Under the pieces are notes generated by a model, which made no database searches, was not told the DNA's origin, and saw nothing but the letters and a program-made list of their open reading frames with translations. A stretch of 57,065 nucleotides of DNA, taken from Thermotogota bacterium. GTDB lineage: Bacteria > Thermotogota > Thermotogae > Petrotogales > Petrotogaceae. This document shows positions 27,125-42,324 of the stretch, piece by piece; the first letter of the stretch is position 1, and each line of letters opens with the position of its first letter. The DNA is taken from contig JBNJGY010000006.1 in the NCBI GenBank assembly GCA_051748045.1, positions 1-57,065 of the forward strand, read 5' to 3'. Made by a program: the position numbers and the translations under genes.

Positions 27125-27670
27125 TTATTCAAAAATGGGAAATCTTAATCCAGAAATATACTCGTCATCTTTATTGTACTCACCAGAATAATCATCTATT
27201 TGTTTACCTGTTTCATAATCCATGACACTCATATAACAACTTCCATCTGGCGCCTCTGTAAATATTGAAGGAAGATATTCTAATTCTTCTTCTGTTTTTC
27301 CTTCATCATCGTCCATAGCAACCTCTGAAAGAACTGAATAAGCATGTACCTTTGATATTTGAGCTATATTATGAAGAAAAAGGCTTAAATTTTTTAATTC
27401 TTCTTCGCTTTCTACTTCAAAAGGAAAATAAATTGGAATTATATTTTCTTGTATATCATAAAAATCCATATATTCTCTTAATTCTTCTTCATAATCAGGA
27501 TCATTTTGTTTAATAAAATTTAAAAACTCTTCTTTTTTTTCTTCTGTTTCAAAACTCATCCACAAAAGAAAAACAGGATGAATATGATCGCCATGTAAAA
27601 AACCTTCATTTTTCACATTTTTTAAAAATGTATCATGAAATTTTTTATAACCTTTAAAATCTTTACTCAT
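27125..27670 (-). CDS. Acidic hypothetical protein downstream of nrdJ
   Basis: 181-aa ORF with SD AGGAGG, 15 nt after the nrdJ stop. Confidence 0.75.
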   Translation of the reverse strand: MSKDFKGYKKFHDTFLKNVKNEGFLHGDHIHPVFLLWMSFETEEKKEEFLNFIKQNDPDYEEELREYMDFYDIQENIIPIYFPFEVESEEELKNLSLFLHNIAQISKVHAYSVLSEVAMDDDEGKTEEELEYLPSIFTEAPDGSCYMSVMDYETGKQIDDYSGEYNKDDEYISGLRFPIFE

Positions 27671-31628: not shown

Positions 31629-31722
31629 ATTTACTCCTCCTTAATTGATTATAATCCTCTATCATTATATAATAAAATGTTATAATACAAAAAGATGTAT
31701 TTACTTACTTAGGAGTGTTTAA

Positions 31723-32199
31723 ATGAGAATATTAGGTATAGATCCAGGATACGGAAGAATTGGTTACGGAGTATTAGATAAAACTGGAAATCGATTTAAA
31801 ACTATTGATTATGGTGTTATATACACAGATAAAGATAAAGACTTACCTTTAAGACTATTTGAAATTAAACAAAAAATAACTCTATTAATAGAAAAATACC
31901 AACCTGATGAATCTTCAGTAGAAGATTTATTTTTCTTTAGAAACGTAACAACTGCTATTCAAGTTGGAGAAGCAAGAGGAGTCATCTTAGTAGCTTTAGT
32001 AGAAAATGAAGTCCCTATTTACGAGTATACTCCTTTTCAAATTAAACAAGCTGTAACTGGTTACGGTAGAGCAGAAAAAGGACAAATTCAAAGAACATTG
32101 AAACTATTATTAAATCTCAAAAAGAACCCAACACCTGATGATGCTGCTGATGCTTTAGCTGCAGCGTTTTGTCATGGAAATTTTAGGGGGGTAGTTTGA
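31723..32199 (+). CDS. ruvC: Holliday junction resolvase
   Basis: ILGIDPG, VEDLFF, GEARGV, GYGRAEK, DDAADALAAA. Confidence 0.96.
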   Translation: MRILGIDPGYGRIGYGVLDKTGNRFKTIDYGVIYTDKDKDLPLRLFEIKQKITLLIEKYQPDESSVEDLFFFRNVTTAIQVGEARGVILVALVENEVPIYEYTPFQIKQAVTGYGRAEKGQIQRTLKLLLNLKKNPTPDDAADALAAAFCHGNFRGVV

Positions 32200-35100
32200 T
32201 GGATTTAAAAAGGTATTTTGATGAAAACATAGGGTACATTCCTTTTGATTTAGACGGAGAAGTTGAAATAACAAAAGGTCTAGTTAAAGTTAAAATAAAA
32301 AATAATTTCAATGAAAGTATGGAAAGTTCATTGAAAAAATTCTTTTTAAGAAATTTAAAAACAGAAGTTATGGTAGAACCTATTGGAGACAACAAACCAG
32401 AATATATAGTAAACAATTGGCAAAAAATAATAATTGGACACAAATTAGATGATTATTTAAGTTTATTATTACCAGAGTTAAAAGGTGATGTCTTAGTTTT
32501 CAAGAGTCATTCAAAGTTGGTAATTCAAAGAATGAAAAACTCTAAAGAAATTTTAAATGATATTATAACAAGACACTGTGGGATGAAAATAGAATTTTTA
32601 TTAGAACTAGATAATACACTTAAACCAGATTTTGATGATACTTTTGGACACGATTATGTTGATTTTGATAATTATGAACAACAAAATAAAGAACCTTTAC
32701 AAGATAATAAAACGACTAACAAAAAATCTAAATCTAAAATTATATTAGGTAGAAATTTTAAAAAAGTTCCAATAGATCTTGATAATGTCCCTACTGTTGA
32801 AGGAAGTATATTAGTAGTAAAAGGACAAGTATTTTATAAAGACTATAATGATAAATCAAATATTAGTACTCTTTTTATAACGGATAAAAAAGACTCTATT
32901 GTAATAAAACATTTCTTCGACAAAGGAGAAATAATGCATAAAAATGTAAATGTAGGTGATTTTATAGTTGCTGAAGGTAGTTTATTTTATGATAGTTTTA
33001 TAAACGATTTTTCAATAAAACCTTTTAACCTTAAAAAAATACAACCAGATCAATTAAAAATGGACAATAGTCAAGAAAAAAGAGTAGAACTACATACTCA
33101 TACTAAATTGAGTCAAATGGATGGAATAATGGAAGTAAAAGATTTAGTAAAAAGAGTTAAATCTTGGGGACATAAAGCTGTTGCAATAACTGACCATGGA
33201 GGTATTCAAAACATACCTCAATTTTATGATATAGCTAAAGCTGAAGGGATAAAACCGATCTTTGGTTTAGAAGGTGATGTAGTTGATGAGTATATTGAAA
33301 TCATAAATATTTTTGGAGATGGAGAAAAATCTTTAAAAGATACTGAATATGTAGTTTTTGATTTTGAAACTACAGGAACTCAACCAGATGTAAATGAAAT
33401 AATTGAATTTGGGGCTGTAAAAGTAAAAGATGGTGAAATAATAGATAAATTTCATGAACTGGTAAAACCTGAAGAAGAATTACCGGAGATAACCACTGAA
33501 ATAACAGGTATAACTCAAGAGATGCTTAATGACAAACCACCTATTCATAAAATAATGCCAAAATTTTTAGATTTTATCGAAAACACTGTTTTAGTAGCTC
33601 ATAATGCAATATTCGACTTTAGATTTTTAAGATCCTGGGTATCAAAATTATATGATAGAACATTTGAACAAACATATATTGACACTTTATCAATGGCAAA
33701 ATCTTTATTGACAATAAAAAGATTCTCTTTAGATAAAGTTGTAAAAGAGTTAGGTTTAAGTGACTTCAATCACCATAGAGCTGATGAAGATGCTCATGTA
33801 ACAGCATTAGCTTTTATACGATTACTTGATATGGCTCACAACAGAGGAATGGAAACATTAGCAGATTTAGACAAATTAAGAAAGTTTATTGATTATAAAA
33901 GAATTTTTCCAAAACACATGAGTATACTTATAAAAAATAAAATCGGATTAAAAAATTCTTATAAATTAGTTTCAAATGCACATACAAAATATTTTTATAT
34001 GCATCCTAGAATTTTAAAAAGTGAATTAGAAGCTTTGAGAGAAGGTCTTTTGATAGGCTCTGGTTGTGAAAATGGAGAATTAGCTGATGCATTTATAAGA
34101 GGGGCTACAAAAGATGAGATGAAAGAAATTGCAAAATTTTTTGACTATTTAGAAATAATGCCAATAGATACATTGGAGACTCGAGAAGAGCTTTCTAAAG
34201 AAAGAATTATTGAAATGTATCAAACAATATATGAAATAGGAAAAGAGTTAGATAAACCTGTAGTTATGGTGAGTAACTCTCATTATTTAGATGAAACAGA
34301 CATGAAATTCAGACATGCATTAAAAGTAGCAGATAAGAAAAAATCTTATAATTCAAATCGCCATTTAAGAACTACTGATGAAATGCTAAAAAATGCCATG
34401 GAAATTTTTAACAATGAAGAAATATCTAAAAAAATTGTTATAGAAAACACTAATTTAATTGCAGAGAAAATAGAAGATATAGTTCCTTTGAAAAAAAAGC
34501 TAAACCCACCTAATATTGAAAATGCTGATAATGAAGTCAGAGAAACAACATATAAAAAAGCACACGAAATATATGGAAAAATATTACCAGAAATAATAGA
34601 AAAAAGAATAGAAAGAGAATTAGATTCCATAATTAAACATGGATATTCTGTACTTTATCTCATGGCAGAAAGAATAGTCAAAAAATCAAATGAAGACGGT
34701 TATCTAGTTGGATCCAGAGGTTCTGTTGGTTCTTCATTGGTAGCTTTTTTAATGGGTATTACAGAAGTTAATCCTATGCCTCCACACTATGTTTGCCCAA
34801 AATGTAAAAAATCAAAATTTTTTACAAAAGGTGAATATGGCTCAGGTTATGACCTGCCCGATAAAAAATGTCTAGAGTGTGAAGTTCAAATGATAAAGAA
34901 TGGACAAGATATTTTATTTGAAACTTTTATGGGTTTTGAAGGAGACAAGATACCTGATATTGATTTGAATTTTTCTGGAGAATATCAATCTAGAGCTCAT
35001 AAATATGTAGAAAAATTATTTGGAGAAGATCATGTATTTAAAGCTGGTACTATTTCTACAGTAGCTGAAAAAACAGCTTTGGAATACGCCAGAAAATATT

Positions 35101-36371
35101 CTGAAACTGCTGATTTTGTAAGACAATGTGAACAACAAAGAATAGCAAATGCCATAACTGGGGTAAAAAGAACAACAGGACAACATCCAGGCGGCCTCAT
35201 GATTGTCCCAAAAGAATTTGAGGTATTTGATTTTACACCAATACAATTTCCTGCAAATGATACAAAATCTGACGTACAAACCACTCATTTTGATTATCAT
35301 GTTATTCATGATGATTTAGTTAAACTTGATGCACTTGGACATGATGACCCCACTTTTATAAGAATGCTTGAAGATTTAACTGGTGTAGATGCTTTGAAAA
35401 TACCAATGGATGACAAAGATACAATGTCAATTTTTTCAAGTACAAAAGCTTTAAAAGTTGACTTAAAATCAGAATTAGATACGACAGTTGGAGCATTAGG
35501 AATACCTGAATTTGGAACGAATTTTGTGCGAAGAATGCTAGATGATACAAAACCTAGTACTTTTGCAGAACTTGTTAGAATCTCAGGTTTATCACACGGT
35601 ACAAATGTTTGGGTAGGAAATGCAAAAAACATTATAGATAGAGGAGATGCTACACTTAATGAAGTTATATCCTGTAGAGATGATATAATGAATTATCTCA
35701 TACACAAAGGCGCAGATCCAAAAAAATCATTTTTCATAATGGAAAAAGTTAGAAAAGGTAAAAGTTTAACAGATGATGAAGAACAATTAATGAAAGATGT
35801 AGGGGTTCCTAATTGGTTTATGGAATCTTGTAGAATAATATCTTATCTATTTCCAAAAGCACACGCTGCAGCTTATGTTAGTATGGCTTTTAGAATTGCT
35901 TGGTTTAAAGTTCATAAACCTTTAGCATTTTATGCTACATATTTTTCTGTAAAAGGTGATGAGTTTAATCTACCTGTTATTTTAAAAGGGAAAAATTCTA
36001 TAAAAAGAAGACTTATGGAAATAAAAGGAGAAAGAGATGTAAAATTAAAAAAAGAAAGAACAGTTTTAGAAGTGGCATATGAAATGCTTTTAAGAGGTTT
36101 TAATTTTATTAATGTTGATTTATATAAATCAGATTCAAAAAAATTCATCATACAAGGTAAGGGATTATTAATCCCATTTATAAAAATCCCAAACCTTGGA
36201 GAAAAAGCAGCTGAAAGTGTTATTGTTGAGAGAGAAATTGAACCTTTTCAATCAATCGAAGAACTTGTTGCTAGAACAGCAGTAAATAAATCAAACACAG
36301 AAATATTAAAGGAATTAGGAATATTAAAAGGTTTACCAGATAAAAACCAAATGTCATTATTTGGAGGATAA
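32199..36371 (+). CDS. polC: DNA polymerase III alpha subunit, PolC type
   Basis: OB fold, PHP (HTHT...TDH), embedded DEDD exonuclease (VVFDFETTG), CPKC/CLEC Zn site, PDIDLNF, C-terminal clamp-binding motif QMSLF. TGATG overlap with ruvC. Confidence 0.96.
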   Translation: MDLKRYFDENIGYIPFDLDGEVEITKGLVKVKIKNNFNESMESSLKKFFLRNLKTEVMVEPIGDNKPEYIVNNWQKIIIGHKLDDYLSLLLPELKGDVLVFKSHSKLVIQRMKNSKEILNDIITRHCGMKIEFLLELDNTLKPDFDDTFGHDYVDFDNYEQQNKEPLQDNKTTNKKSKSKIILGRNFKKVPIDLDNVPTVEGSILVVKGQVFYKDYNDKSNISTLFITDKKDSIVIKHFFDKGEIMHKNVNVGDFIVAEGSLFYDSFINDFSIKPFNLKKIQPDQLKMDNSQEKRVELHTHTKLSQMDGIMEVKDLVKRVKSWGHKAVAITDHGGIQNIPQFYDIAKAEGIKPIFGLEGDVVDEYIEIINIFGDGEKSLKDTEYVVFDFETTGTQPDVNEIIEFGAVKVKDGEIIDKFHELVKPEEELPEITTEITGITQEMLNDKPPIHKIMPKFLDFIENTVLVAHNAIFDFRFLRSWVSKLYDRTFEQTYIDTLSMAKSLLTIKRFSLDKVVKELGLSDFNHHRADEDAHVTALAFIRLLDMAHNRGMETLADLDKLRKFIDYKRIFPKHMSILIKNKIGLKNSYKLVSNAHTKYFYMHPRILKSELEALREGLLIGSGCENGELADAFIRGATKDEMKEIAKFFDYLEIMPIDTLETREELSKERIIEMYQTIYEIGKELDKPVVMVSNSHYLDETDMKFRHALKVADKKKSYNSNRHLRTTDEMLKNAMEIFNNEEISKKIVIENTNLIAEKIEDIVPLKKKLNPPNIENADNEVRETTYKKAHEIYGKILPEIIEKRIERELDSIIKHGYSVLYLMAERIVKKSNEDGYLVGSRGSVGSSLVAFLMGITEVNPMPPHYVCPKCKKSKFFTKGEYGSGYDLPDKKCLECEVQMIKNGQDILFETFMGFEGDKIPDIDLNFSGEYQSRAHKYVEKLFGEDHVFKAGTISTVAEKTALEYARKYSETADFVRQCEQQRIANAITGVKRTTGQHPGGLMIVPKEFEVFDFTPIQFPANDTKSDVQTTHFDYHVIHDDLVKLDALGHDDPTFIRMLEDLTGVDALKIPMDDKDTMSIFSSTKALKVDLKSELDTTVGALGIPEFGTNFVRRMLDDTKPSTFAELVRISGLSHGTNVWVGNAKNIIDRGDATLNEVISCRDDIMNYLIHKGADPKKSFFIMEKVRKGKSLTDDEEQLMKDVGVPNWFMESCRIISYLFPKAHAAAYVSMAFRIAWFKVHKPLAFYATYFSVKGDEFNLPVILKGKNSIKRRLMEIKGERDVKLKKERTVLEVAYEMLLRGFNFINVDLYKSDSKKFIIQGKGLLIPFIKIPNLGEKAAESVIVEREIEPFQSIEELVARTAVNKSNTEILKELGILKGLPDKNQMSLFGG

Positions 36372-36373
36372 AA

Positions 36374-37435
36374 ATGGAAGGCTATATTACCTTTTCACAT
36401 TTAAATAAAGTAACAGAATTTTTAGATAATTTTTGTGGAACAGTAGAACCTTCCACAAGAAATGCTTATTTCTTTTATGATAACGGATTGAAAATTTATG
36501 CCTCTGATAATTGTGGCAGTATGATAATGAATTTCACAAGAGATTTCCTACCTTTTGATGGAGTAGCAGTAATCCCAATTCAATACTTAAAAGGATTAAC
36601 AAGAGGAAAAAACAAAAAATCTGATCAAATTGTAAAGATCACTATTAACAAAGATCATGTATTATTCTCATTTGAAGAAATGAATTTATCAACTGAAATA
36701 AAAAAGGAAGAATCACACCCAGAAATAATAAAAGATTTTGAAAATTTATCAATAGATTCTTTAAATGAGTTTATTAAAAAAATTGATTTTGTTTCAGCCT
36801 CAGCAAACGAAGGAGATCTAATAAATATATTTACTAGGAATCAATCTATTAAATTCAGTTATATTTCTGATTATTACTATACAGAATCTGAATATTCTAA
36901 TTCTGAAAAAAACTTTTCTTTGTCTATTCCATACGTTACAATTAGACATATTGTAAAATCATTAAAAAAATTAAGAAAAAATTCAAATATTTCATTAGGT
37001 TATGAAAATAATAAATTGATTTTATTAGCTCCAGGTGTTATAATCAATCTCTGTACATCAAAATTTAATGCTGATGTTATAGAGATAGAAAACTTCAAAA
37101 TTGAAGAAGAATTAAGAATTAAATCAAATAACCTAAAAAAAGCTTTAGATAAAATGTATATCTCTTTCAAAAAAAATAATATAGCTTATATTGTTTTAAG
37201 CACAAAAGGATCATACATATACAAGGAAGAAAATGATTCTCATTTATCTTGGAAACTAGATATAAAATCTAAACATAAATATTTAGTTAAAATTCATATC
37301 AGAAAAATGAGGTCAATACTGACAAGACTTCCAGAGAACTTATTATTAAAAATTACAGAATCAAAACTGATAATCACCGACTTAAAAAACAAAAAAATGG
37401 CTATTTTTCAAATACAAAAATCATCAAAGCAGTGA
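36374..37435 (+). CDS. Hypothetical protein; putative highly diverged beta sliding-clamp (DnaN-fold) paralogue
   Basis: 353 aa with three approximately 115-aa units showing the clamp helix/strand pattern; starts 2 nt after the polC stop with its SD inside polC. Fold call is by eye. Confidence 0.55.
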   Translation: MEGYITFSHLNKVTEFLDNFCGTVEPSTRNAYFFYDNGLKIYASDNCGSMIMNFTRDFLPFDGVAVIPIQYLKGLTRGKNKKSDQIVKITINKDHVLFSFEEMNLSTEIKKEESHPEIIKDFENLSIDSLNEFIKKIDFVSASANEGDLINIFTRNQSIKFSYISDYYYTESEYSNSEKNFSLSIPYVTIRHIVKSLKKLRKNSNISLGYENNKLILLAPGVIINLCTSKFNADVIEIENFKIEEELRIKSNNLKKALDKMYISFKKNNIAYIVLSTKGSYIYKEENDSHLSWKLDIKSKHKYLVKIHIRKMRSILTRLPENLLLKITESKLIITDLKNKKMAIFQIQKSSKQ

Positions 37436-37443
37436 GGTGTTAA

Positions 37444-38322
37444 ATGCAAAATAAAACTAAAGGACTAATATTTTTATCCATAACAGTAGTACTTTGGGGA
37501 ATATCATTTGTAGCTACATCAGTAGTCGTAAGATACATTCCCCCTATAATAGCAGGATTTATAAGATTTAGTATAGCTTCAATTTTTTTAATGATATTTG
37601 TTAGAAAAAATGTAAAATATACAAAAAAAGAAGTTTTTTATCTAATAATGACAGGTTTTTTTGGAATAACAGCATATTTTATATTTGAAAATACTGCTTT
37701 GATGTATACAACACCCAGCAATAGTTCATTAATAATATCATCTACGCCTATCTTTTTTTTAATAGTTAATGATATAATTCAAAAAAAATTATCTAATAAA
37801 ATTCGATACCTAGGAACTTTAATTGCTTTTACAGGAGTCACACTTTTAATATTAAATGGAAAATACATATTAGAGTTGAATCCCATAGGAGACTTGCTAA
37901 TGATGATACCTGTTTTTAGTTGGATAGTTTATACAATCTATCTAGAAAAACTAAATGTGAAGCATTCTAACCTCATCATAACAAGAGATATGACTATGTA
38001 TGGAGCTATATTTTTTGCACCATTTGCTATATTAGAAATGTTAAAAGCAGACAGTTGTCCTGTTTATGAATTATGGTTACAACCAATGGTAATAATATCT
38101 CTATTATTTTTGGGAATACTTTGTTCTGCAATTGGTTATATTTTCTGGAATTATTCAGTAAAACTAGCTGGTTCAAAGACAACGATAAATGGAATTTATT
38201 TTATACCTATGGTCACTTTAATAGCTGATTCAATTTTTCTAAAAAATATACCAAATGTATTCACTTTAATAGGCGCAATACTAATTATCTCAGGAACTTA
38301 CATAGCTGAAAAGAAATTTTAA
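37444..38322 (+). CDS. DMT/EamA family transporter
   Basis: LWGISF, RF motif, about 10 TM segments in two EamA repeats. Confidence 0.9.
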   Translation: MQNKTKGLIFLSITVVLWGISFVATSVVVRYIPPIIAGFIRFSIASIFLMIFVRKNVKYTKKEVFYLIMTGFFGITAYFIFENTALMYTTPSNSSLIISSTPIFFLIVNDIIQKKLSNKIRYLGTLIAFTGVTLLILNGKYILELNPIGDLLMMIPVFSWIVYTIYLEKLNVKHSNLIITRDMTMYGAIFFAPFAILEMLKADSCPVYELWLQPMVIISLLFLGILCSAIGYIFWNYSVKLAGSKTTINGIYFIPMVTLIADSIFLKNIPNVFTLIGAILIISGTYIAEKKF

Positions 38323-38370: not shown

Positions 38371-38404
38371 ATAAATGGTTGCATTTGCAACCGTTTATTT
38401 TTTT
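38371..38404 (+). terminator. Probable terminator of ruvC-polC-hypothetical-DMT
   Basis: ATAAATGGTTGCA-TT-TGCAACCGTTTAT plus T-run. Confidence 0.65.
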
Positions 38405-40073: not shown

Positions 40074-41315
40074 ATGAGTAATAAAGAATGTTCATTTTGC
40101 GGGAAACCACAATCCGAAGCAGAAGCGTTGATAGCAGGTCCAAATGGCATATACATATGTGATGAATGTATTGAACTATTTGATGACTTAATAGAAGAAA
40201 ACAAAAATAAAAATACTAAAAATGGTGAAAAAGAAACAAAAAAAGAATTCAAATTACCAACACCAAGTAAAATAAAAGATTTTTTAGATCAATATATAAT
40301 AGGACAAGAAAGTGCTAAAAAATCAATTTCAGTTGCAGTTTACAATCATTATAAAAGAATTTTTTCTTCTCATAAATTAAAAGATGTAATGCTTGAAAAA
40401 TCAAATGTTTTAATGCTTGGACCAACAGGTGTAGGAAAAACATTGATTGCAAAAACATTGGCAGATATTTTAGATGTACCCTTTGCAATTGCAGATGCAA
40501 CTCCATTAACAGAAGCAGGATATGTTGGTGATGATGTAGAAAACATAATATTGAGATTATTACAATCAGCTGATTTTGATGTAGAAAAAGCAGAAAGAGG
40601 AATTATATATATAGATGAAATTGATAAAATAACAAGAAAATCATCAAACCCATCTATAACAAGAGATGTTTCTGGAGAAGGGGTACAACAGTCTCTTCTA
40701 AAAATTGTTGAAGGTACAGTAGCAAATATACCTCCACAAGGTGGAAGAAAACACCCTTATCAAGAATTTATTAAAGTTGATACCTCAAAAATATTGTTCA
40801 TAGCAGGTGGGGCTTTCGATGGACTTGTAGATTTAATAAAACAAAGAACAGAAACTTCTTCACTTGGTTTTGGTGCTGAAATAAAATCAAAAGATAAAAT
40901 TAGAGACGGAGAAGTTCTGAAAAAAGTTACCCCAGATGATTTGGTTCATTATGGTATGATACCTGAATTTGTAGGTAGATTCCCAGTTGTTTCAACACTC
41001 TCAGATCTAAATGAAGAAGAGCTTGTTTCCATAATTAAAGAACCTAAAAATGCTATTTTAAAACAATATGAAGCATTACTAGACCTTGATGACATAAAAC
41101 TTACTATAACTGATGAAGGTCTTTTTGAAATAGCTAAAAATGCTTTAACAAGAGGTACTGGAGCAAGAGCACTTAAAAGTGTTTTTGAAGATATAACTTT
41201 AGATATAATGTATGAAGCTCCAGATTTAAAAGATGAAATTGACGAAATTATAATAGACGAAGAAGTAGTAAGAGGAGAAAAAGAGGTTATAAAAAAATAT
41301 AAAAAAACAGCTTAA
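40074..41315 (+). CDS. clpX: ATP-dependent Clp protease ATP-binding subunit
   Basis: C4 Zn finger (CSFC...CDEC), [17 protein letters not shown] loop, LGF loop, GAR. Confidence 0.97.
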
Positions 41316-41331
41316 ATAAAGGATGGTTCTC

Positions 41332-42324
41332 ATGAAAGACCCAATAATATTATCAATAGAAACTTCATGTGATGAAACAGCCATTTGTATTTTAAAAGGA
41401 AAAGATAAAATATTATCTAATATAGTTTTATCTCAAATAGATATTCATAAACTATTTGGTGGTGTTGTACCTGAAGTCGCAGCAAGAAAACATATAAAGT
41501 TTATGAATGAGATAACAGAAAAAGCTATAGAAGAGGCTAAAATAAAATTAAATCAAATAGATGCAATAGCAGTAACAAAAGGCCCTGGTCTAGTCGGGGC
41601 TTTATTAATAGGTATAAATTTTGCTAAGGCTTTATCTTTAAACTTAAATATCCCATTAATAGGTGTAAATCATTTAATGGGGCATATTTATGCCAATTTT
41701 CTTTCATTCCCTAAATTAAAACCTCCTTTTGTAACTCTCTTAGTATCAGGTGGGCATACTATGATTTTGGATACAAAAGATTATTTAGAGTTTGAAATAA
41801 TAGGACAAACTAAAGATGACGCTGCAGGAGAAGCATTTGATAAAGTTGCAAGAATGCTGGATCTTGGTTATCCTGGTGGTCCAATTATAGATAAATTATC
41901 TAAAGCTGGTAAAAAAATATATAAATTTCCTAAACCATTATATAATAAAGGCTATGATTTTTCTTTTTCTGGATTAAAAACTTCAGTTTTATATTTTAGA
42001 AAAGATAACCCTGAAGCAAAAATAGAAGATATTGCAGCTTCTTTTCAAGAATCTTTAATAGATACCTTAATACATAAAACCACAAAATACGCCAGAAGGA
42101 ACAATAGAAAAAAAATTGTAATAGCAGGTGGGGTAGCAGCAAATTCAACATTAAGAGAAAAACTAAAAGATCTAAAAGATCTTGATATATATTTCCCAGA
42201 AATGAATTTATGTACAGATAATGCAGCTATGATAGCAAGAGCAGCCTACCAAAAATTTATAAAAAATGATTTTTCCAATTTTGATTTAGACGCTATTCCG
42301 AATTTAGCGCTAAAAGAGCTTTAA
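41332..42324 (+). CDS. tsaD: tRNA N6-threonylcarbamoyltransferase
   Basis: IETSCDET, GGVVPEVAARKH, HLMGH, VSGGHT, CTDNAAMI. Start at 41323 or 41332. Confidence 0.96.
   Translation: MKDPIILSIETSCDETAICILKGKDKILSNIVLSQIDIHKLFGGVVPEVAARKHIKFMNEITEKAIEEAKIKLNQIDAIAVTKGPGLVGALLIGINFAKALSLNLNIPLIGVNHLMGHIYANFLSFPKLKPPFVTLLVSGGHTMILDTKDYLEFEIIGQTKDDAAGEAFDKVARMLDLGYPGGPIIDKLSKAGKKIYKFPKPLYNKGYDFSFSGLKTSVLYFRKDNPEAKIEDIAASFQESLIDTLIHKTTKYARRNNRKKIVIAGGVAANSTLREKLKDLKDLDIYFPEMNLCTDNAAMIARAAYQKFIKNDFSNFDLDAIPNLALKEL

Follow-up and report, generated by a model that had tools for sequence, protein, structure and literature searches.

A strongly diverged paralogue of the beta sliding clamp conserved across the Thermotogota

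The literature searched treats bacteria as using a single sliding clamp, the beta clamp DnaN, on which polymerases and repair proteins converge. Additional bacterial copies are known, for example DnaN2 of Bacillus anthracis and the griselimycin-resistance DnaN of Streptomyces. Such paralogues are easily identified as DnaN, and their peptide pocket is retained. Further afield, the herpesvirus processivity factors UL42, UL44, BMRF1 and PF-8 have a clamp fold and bind DNA directly via a basic surface without a clamp loader. Here we analysed a stretch of 57,065 nucleotides from a Thermotogota bacterium (assembly GCA_051748045.1, contig JBNJGY010000006.1; hereafter the window), in which a gene that we call gene X is located directly behind polC. 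An earlier note on this DNA had taken its product, X, for a second, highly diverged beta clamp. We found that X is a true but very diverged paralogue of the bacterial beta clamp, with three clamp domains in one chain. The X family is a strongly diverged form of this clamp that is conserved across the phylum, including the model organism Thermotoga maritima, a spread that the earlier note had missed.

A three-domain clamp homologous to DnaN

The AlphaFold2 model of X, computed from a 14-sequence alignment, is confident (predicted local distance difference test, pLDDT, 88.8; predicted template modelling score, pTM, 0.86) and consists of three repeats of a (beta-alpha-beta-beta-beta)x2 unit, which agrees with the three similar units into which the 353-residue protein had been divided by eye. 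A Foldseek search of the model against the PDB returned at least 500 matches at E<=0.001, and all of the 36 matches listed are bacterial beta/DnaN clamps (best E 2.2e-20, TM 0.77–0.84, 9–14% identity). With an independent aligner DnaN chains occupied ranks 1–16, with Z 24.9–27.6 over 332–345 residues and a root-mean-square deviation (rmsd) of 3.0–3.7 Å; the DnaN chain of T. maritima, 1vpk_A, scored Z 27.4. The distant ortholog P0079, which is 25% identical to X, was modelled with pLDDT 94.4 and pTM 0.90, and its best match is likewise 1vpk_A, with Z 29.1 over 346 residues. Chains of the two-domain (hetero)trimer type align less extensively with the X models: PCNA and 9-1-1 chains reach Z of about 14–16 over about 210–230 residues, and X is not of this type. 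The herpesvirus processivity factors reach Z 10.6–12.8. In the AlphaFold2 models X thus has the three tandem clamp domains forming a half ring that define membership of the superfamily, so that the clamp fold proposed earlier, for which a structure prediction with Foldseek had been named as the check, stands. The predicted curvature of the protomer matches that of DnaN and would be compatible with a ring, although it is not proof of one. Complex prediction with two copies of X (alignment A2) gave scores of 0.29 and 0.24 against a mark of 0.42 and speaks neither for nor against dimerisation.

Homology to DnaN is also seen between sequence profiles. Global alignment by hhalign of 35 X-family proteins with 30 Thermotogota DnaN proteins gave a probability of 99.5%, E 9e-22 and 345 collinear columns; in local mode the probability was 98.6% (E 7e-16), compared with 0.8% for a control with reversed alignment. 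The resemblance reflects homology rather than convergence. The register of the alignment also reproduces the domain pairings that had been drawn by eye, for example LKIYASDNCGS opposite LNIFATDLQTG of DnaN. Single sequences show the relationship sporadically. The cut-off of PF00712 is passed by one of 12 X orthologs (26.1 versus 24.4 bits), four more have sub-threshold beta-domain matches, and P0079 gives a full-length match to phrog_947 ‘DNA polymerase processivity factor’ (E 3e-6). The window protein itself does not reach the cut-offs of the curated DnaN models (PF00712/PF02767/PF02768, NCBIfam dnaN), has no match in PHROGs and finds no match by BLASTP in the DnaN of the same genome. This canonical DnaN is encoded on another contig (C18), measures 370–377 residues and contains all three Pfam beta domains at 116, 76 and 96 bits. 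X is therefore a paralogue, as had been claimed, and not the only clamp gene of its genome.

Phage beta clamps match the X model as well as cellular ones, not better (TM 0.77–0.81, E about 3e-20). As both match equally, and a tree would be unreliable at about 13% identity, X may derive from a cellular or a phage clamp.

Charge, conserved residues and the peptide pocket

The X family differs markedly from DnaN in charge. Its median isoelectric point (pI) is 9.06 (6.1–9.7, n = 35) versus 4.76 for DnaN (4.4–5.5, n = 30), and the values for the window X and the DnaN of its own genome are 9.2 and 4.8. Domain III is basic in all 35 members, with pI 9.3–10.9 and a net charge of +4 to +15, compared to a median of -3.5 in DnaN. 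With 26 lysine and arginine versus 11 aspartate and glutamate residues, domain III of the window X bears out the strong basicity ascribed to it before. X lacks an acidic exterior of the DnaN type; judged from the alignment, its conserved basic residues lie on helices, and the channel part of the DnaN pattern would be kept.

We identified 12 positions that are at least 70% lysine, arginine or histidine in the family: K12, N19, R29, K73, R191, H192, K195, K260, K267, K311, R313 and R318. According to the secondary structure of the model, nine of them lie in the six helices and three in adjoining loops. R191 and K195, both part of a signature in the second helix of domain II (Table 1), are invariant, and H192 is 97% conserved; their i, i+1, i+4 spacing would place the three residues on one helix face. 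In clamps, the helices of the domains line the DNA channel.

The residues that characterise DnaN are for the most part not those that X conserves. Of 100 positions conserved to at least 80% in DnaN of the phylum, 94 align to X and 18 share the top residue, and median X-family conservation at these positions is 0.31 versus 0.29 overall. The segments D181-G-F-R-x-A-L187, F252-P-x-Y-x2-V-x-P260 and M372-P-x-R375 (numbering of the window genome's DnaN), whose E. coli counterparts form the peptide pocket, are 80–100% conserved in DnaN, whereas the aligned X columns are 17–43% conserved. The D-G-F-R-x-A-L pocket strand falls opposite unconserved columns of domain II, and the loop N161-L-N-G164 has no aligned counterpart in X in the profile alignment. 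At the level of the alignment, the signature of the canonical QxxLF peptide pocket is lost in the X family, although X may have a pocket of another build; the absence of the DnaN pocket motifs had already been noticed in the single protein.

A few conserved positions are shared between both families. D45 of X corresponds to the aspartate of the DnaN ‘ATD’ motif and P26 to a conserved DnaN proline after helix 1. L105, conserved to 91%, aligns with a 97%-conserved DnaN phenylalanine; the corresponding residue lies at the dimer interface of the E. coli clamp. We also observed two conserved cysteines in X, C47 in domain I and C227 in domain II (83–86% of 35 members in alignment A2, at least 90% of 33 in A3), which are not matched by cysteines in the aligned columns of DnaN. 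If close in space, they might form a disulfide or a metal site.

Distribution of the X family and its linkage to polC

A phmmer search with X among 1.84 billion representative proteins returned just 34 proteins at E<=0.001, one of which is an unrelated 1707-residue Calx-beta repeat protein. All 30 other relatives that were scanned lack a Pfam family match at E<=0.01. The publicly named members belong without exception to the Thermotogota (Petrotoga, Thermotoga, Pseudothermotoga, Thermosipho, Fervidobacterium, Mesoaciditoga, Athalassotoga and metagenome-assembled genomes). A protein search with profile A2, in which 8000 word-sharing candidates were scored, returned 15 already known members and is uninformative beyond the phylum. 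Within the phylum, profile A1 detected the family in 141 of 151 genomes, corresponding to 111/117 high-quality genomes and 47/48 genera. DnaN (PF00712) was found in 143 of the 151 genomes and both proteins together in 133, and the ten genomes without X do not overlap with the eight without DnaN. Since genomes of at least 90% completeness make up 6/10 of the misses for X and 3/8 of those for DnaN, some of these absences may be real.

Among the listed X matches only that of genome G074 carries internal stop codons. Genome G094 contains a second, partial X-like match (G094:C1:11558-13037; a 197-residue frame covering profile positions 177–328) directly behind a full-length copy, which looks like a tandem partial duplicate. 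Extra matches to a canonical-type DnaN N-domain were observed in G012 (C8, C15), G129 (C23, C3) and G068 (G068:C1:1818024-1818317), the last one broken by two stop codons.

NCBI labels the X proteins ‘hypothetical’, the T. maritima ortholog (THMA_1424) included. UniRef automatically names a few members from Fervidobacterium, Thermosipho and Pseudothermotoga ‘DNA polymerase III subunit beta’ or ‘beta sliding clamp central domain-containing protein’, so the clamp likeness of the family has already been picked up in places by automatic naming. No paper discussing the family was found in the literature searched, which included passages of the main text of PMC3919608, PMC12926913, PMC3417386 and PMC3814617. 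X diverges faster than its neighbours and DnaN: between the window's family and its sister family, identity is 23–28% for X, 37–43% for DnaN, 50–55% for PolC and 58–61% for RuvC.

We assessed the linkage of X to polC by comparing, by eye, the positions of X and of the PolC C-terminus across genomes. In the window's family X lies directly behind polC in 18 of 26 genomes and elsewhere in six, which all belong to one genus (g6); two could not be assigned. The sister family shows the adjacency in 23 of 24 genomes, the single other case being located at a contig edge. Taken together, these two families, which form one order, have 50 X-positive genomes, and X follows polC in 41 of them. For the other nine families 87 X places were listed. 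In all 24 of their genomes with both genes on one contig, X and polC are separated by about 36 kb or more; the remaining X places are on a different contig from polC and are individually uninformative. Among 12 fetched loci from these other lineages and the deviating genus, X follows ddl, alaS, clpX-tsaD, an NFACT gene or a ychF block, or stands alone.

The earlier note had named the synteny of ruvC, polC and X in relatives as a check. This block is tight in the window and recurs in 12/12 loci sampled from the two linked families, where the distance from polC stop to X start is -1 to 12 nt (8–11 nt in four, read from upstream sequence); as these loci were picked from the 41 adjacent ones, only the ruvC part adds information. 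Linkage of X to ruvC and polC is order-specific and not general in the phylum.

A second PolC-like frame of about 965–1025 residues, 45–47% identical to the last 399 residues of PolC, was observed outside the window in the same genome (G000:C9:44987-46177) and in G069, G070, G067, G068, G082 and G085. It may correspond to an extra exonuclease-less PolC copy that is mentioned for one Thermotogae genome in PMC3919608.

The features of the locus are collected in Table 1. As described in the earlier note, the polC stop TAA (36369–36371) is followed by AA and then by the start codon of X, leaving a gap of 2 nt, the Shine-Dalgarno sequence of X lies within the last polC codons, and PolC ends in ...KNQMSLFGG. 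The polC frame opens with TTG at 32196; at 32199 an ATG begins with the A that ends the ruvC stop codon TGA (TGATG). This overlap suggests that ruvC and polC are also translationally coupled and that the true start of polC may be the ATG. No terminator-like site was found by pattern scan between polC, X and eamA before 38371, and the sequence is consistent with a transcription unit ruvC-polC-X-eamA. Promoter-like sites are frequent in this AT-rich DNA (63 observed versus 50 expected), which makes the site upstream of ruvC weak evidence for a start. The last gene belongs to the unit less firmly, eamA being found behind X in just 3 of the 12 sampled relatives.

Table 1. Features of the ruvC-polC-X-eamA region in window coordinates
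Feature	Position	Strand	Basis and remarks
Promoter-like site TTGATT-17-TATAAT	31645..31673	+	Consensus scan only, 10/12 matches; upstream of ruvC, candidate operon start
ruvC, Holliday junction resolvase	31723..32199	+	Pfam RuvC, E 1.2e-49; stop overlaps polC start region
polC, PolC-type DNA polymerase III alpha, 1391 aa from TTG	32196..36371	+	Pfam PHP, RNase_T, DNA_pol3_alpha, finger, HHH_6
QMSLF codons, C-terminal clamp-binding-type motif of PolC	36348..36362	+	Translation; consensus QL[S/D]LF from PMC3919608
GGAGG, Shine-Dalgarno sequence for gene X	36363..36367	+	Within last two polC Gly codons, 6 nt before ATG
Gene X, 353-aa diverged basic beta-clamp paralogue	36374..37435	+	ATG start, stop 37433–37435; AlphaFold2, Foldseek, hhalign
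Clamp domain I, aa 1–120	36374..36733	+	Conserved G22, E25, P26, R29, D45-G-C47, P68, K73, L105
Clamp domain II, aa 121–240	36734..37093	+	Model secondary structure and hhalign
Signature P-Y-x3-R-H-x2-K-x-L, aa 186–197	36929..36964	+	Second helix of domain II; family alignment
Clamp domain III, aa 241–353	37094..37432	+	Strongly basic, pI 10.0; conserved K260, K267, K311, R313, S314, R318
EamA-family transporter gene	37444..38322	+	Pfam EamA, E 6e-37; 8 nt after X, variable operon passenger
Terminator-like hairpin, 12-bp stem and T-run	38371..38398	+	Pattern scan only; first such site after polC, X, eamA

Four RNA-library runs from two studies matched small shares of the window (0.06–0.11). 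Their contigs of 151–169 nt are letter-identical to the window; one lies within X (37205–37371) and two span the 3' end of X into eamA (37384–37534 and 37390–37540). No contig of these four runs, given their small coverage, crosses the junction of polC and X, so that they provide no evidence on co-transcription with polC. Such libraries may contain DNA, and the contigs are at most a weak hint of X expression.

Further downstream, about 2.6 kb from X, the window contains clpX-tsaD (40074–42324). At two loci of family f9 (L035 and L041), whose X proteins are listed by NCBI under Fervidobacterium, X lies directly behind clpX-tsaD. The proximity in the window may be a relic of an earlier gene arrangement. 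A 180-residue open reading frame on the minus strand (27125–27670), adjoining the gene for a class II ribonucleotide reductase, matched no Pfam family at E<=1e-5.

Possible roles and comparison with known clamps

The explanation that we hold to be probable, if not strongly so, is that X is an auxiliary DNA-binding clamp with non-canonical partners and without a demonstrated dedication to PolC, belonging to a family kept beside the canonical acidic DnaN in nearly all Thermotogota. X would bind nucleic acid, most likely DNA, through the basic residues of the channel helices (K12, K73, R191/H192/K195, K260, K311/R313) together with the loop residues R29 and R318, and its uniformly cationic domain III would add to this binding. 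Since the half ring of X superposes on DnaN protomers, a head-to-tail ring around DNA like that of DnaN, or at least a crescent, would be the most economical model. The role of X in replication or repair could then be that of an auxiliary clamp or of a tether on DNA. Given the lack of conservation in the canonical QxxLF pocket, X probably offers its partners another docking surface, for which the strongly conserved loop cluster of domain I (G22-E25-P26-R29 / D45-G-C47) may be the best candidate. In the Petrotoga-type order of the phylum, X would be made with RuvC and PolC from one transcript, which points to a fork or recombination context and not to an exclusive partnership with PolC.

Several points weigh against this explanation. 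Ring formation, DNA binding and the partners of X are things that we infer; the placement of the basic residues on the channel face derives from helix periodicity and general clamp architecture, not from coordinates, and the residue-level mapping of X onto DnaN from a profile alignment at 13% identity. The window protein has no match to DNA_pol3_beta or any other Pfam family at E<=10 and none in NCBIfam, and the X-family profile A1 found 0 matches among PDB sequences at E<=10. Net positive charge is atypical of clamps, and DnaN in the same genomes is acidic; X might therefore grip nucleic acid rather than slide, or bind RNA. Outside the polC-linked order the neighbouring genes are unrelated to replication, several of them (alaS, tsaD, ychF, the NFACT gene, ddl) being translation-related. 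Finally, the fast evolution of X fits a less constrained, accessory role.

A more far-reaching proposal, which we put forward tentatively, is a two-clamp system. Beside DnaN, Thermotogota would possess a cationic second ring, either X2 or X-DnaN, with another docking surface. This ring would serve a lineage-specific part of their unusual replisome, such as PolC in the Petrotoga-type order or a reduced DnaE3, or could instead take part in processing of forks or Holliday junctions with RuvC. DnaE3 is described in PMC3919608 as strongly reduced in this phylum, without recognisable OB and C-terminal domains.

X might also have retained the clamp fold without sliding, acting as a static nucleic-acid tether or scaffold by analogy with herpesvirus UL42/UL44, or as an RNA-binding factor. 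Its basic charge, in contrast to the acidity of DnaN in the same genomes, would suit such a role, as would the net positive charge of domain III, which is kept although most single lysine and arginine positions vary, the loss of the pocket signature, the translation- or RNA-linked neighbours in several lineages and the structural matches to the herpesvirus factors (Z 10.6–12.8). We nevertheless consider it rather unlikely, because the invariant or near-invariant basic residues lie on those helices which form the channel lining of clamps, and because a surface binder would have little reason to keep a whole three-domain half ring (Z 27–29).

That X is a processivity clamp dedicated to PolC, its ring binding the C-terminal QMSLF while canonical DnaN serves DnaE and the repair enzymes, had been offered in the earlier note and appears unlikely. 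The tight coupling of ruvC, polC and X, with a 2-nt gap, a Shine-Dalgarno sequence inside polC and recurrence in 41/50 genomes and 12/12 sampled loci of the two linked families, would be expected under this model, and X and PolC are each present almost throughout the phylum. The adjacency was however not seen in the other nine families, with at least about 36 kb between the genes in 24 single-contig genomes and ddl, alaS, tsaD, NFACT and ychF as X neighbours, and it is also lost in six genomes of one genus within the linked family. Nor does the tail motif single out X: PMC3919608 reports QLSLF-type tails for 98% of PolCs and lists PolC also for Firmicutes, Fusobacteria and Tenericutes, yet none of the named X members comes from these groups. 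In addition, the DnaN segments that hold such a motif align to X columns of 17–43% conservation, and the N-L-N-G loop is absent.

A heterodimeric clamp seems quite improbable. X and DnaN would pair head to tail into an asymmetric ring that combines a single canonical pocket with one novel face, following a logic analogous to crenarchaeal PCNA and 9-1-1. Co-occurrence in 133 of 151 genomes agrees with this, as do the same three-domain size and curvature (rmsd 3.0–3.7 Å over about 340 residues) and the alignment of L105 with the DnaN phenylalanine whose E. coli counterpart lies at the dimer interface; the opposite net charges could favour pairing. Against it, the two genes are never linked and X evolves faster than DnaN. 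The last alternative, a chance reading frame or decaying duplicate, for which the lack of a curated family match for the window protein and the interrupted match in G074 might be quoted, we dismiss as extremely improbable given homologs in 141/151 genomes with stops in just one listed case (the partial copy in G094 stands beside a full one), residues invariant across the phylum, confident folds and, weakly, identical short contigs in RNA libraries.

We also considered a clamp belonging to a defence system; this was rejected, as the neighbours are housekeeping genes and PADLOC reported nothing for 2/2 proteins.

If X is an auxiliary clamp, this deep-branching phylum, which uses PolC, would have in its replisome or among its repair proteins a second clamp-fold protein of opposite charge and without the canonical pocket. 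Should the two-clamp proposal be true, X would provide the first example of a second sliding clamp with a function of its own that belongs to the conserved core of a bacterial phylum. A whole branch of the clamp superfamily escapes the curated family models here, with neither Pfam nor NCBIfam recognising the window protein and Pfam none of 30 relatives at E<=0.01. The T. maritima ortholog, a thermostable protein of 350 residues, offers an easy experimental handle.

Compared with known systems, X has in the herpesvirus factors UL42/UL44/BMRF1/PF-8 a structural match and a possible functional analogy for a cationic clamp, but these are two-domain proteins, their likeness to X is far weaker than that of DnaN and no sequence relation to X was detected. 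Crenarchaeal PCNA1-3 and Rad9-Hus1-Rad1 share the domain fold (Z about 14–16) and the concept of a second, specialised clamp; their protomers are two-domain and trimeric, whereas X has the bacterial three-domain layout. Like the extra DnaN copies and the phage clamps, X is a second clamp-fold gene beside a housekeeping dnaN, and phage beta clamps are its nearest clusters by language-model features, with phrog_947 matching P0079. Unlike the extra DnaN copies, however, X is vertically conserved through the whole phylum, basic and devoid of the pocket signature, and unlike phage or defence clamps it stands in neither a phage nor a defence context. From DnaN itself X differs in being only 9–14% identical and basic (pI 9.1 versus 4.8), in its unconserved pocket segments, the missing N-L-N-G loop and a signature of its own (P-Y-x3-R-H-x2-K), and in a gene located away from dnaN. 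With DnaN it shares the organisation as one chain of about 350–370 residues with three clamp domains, superposing over 332–346 residues with Z 25–29, and a profile homology that is collinear over the full length.

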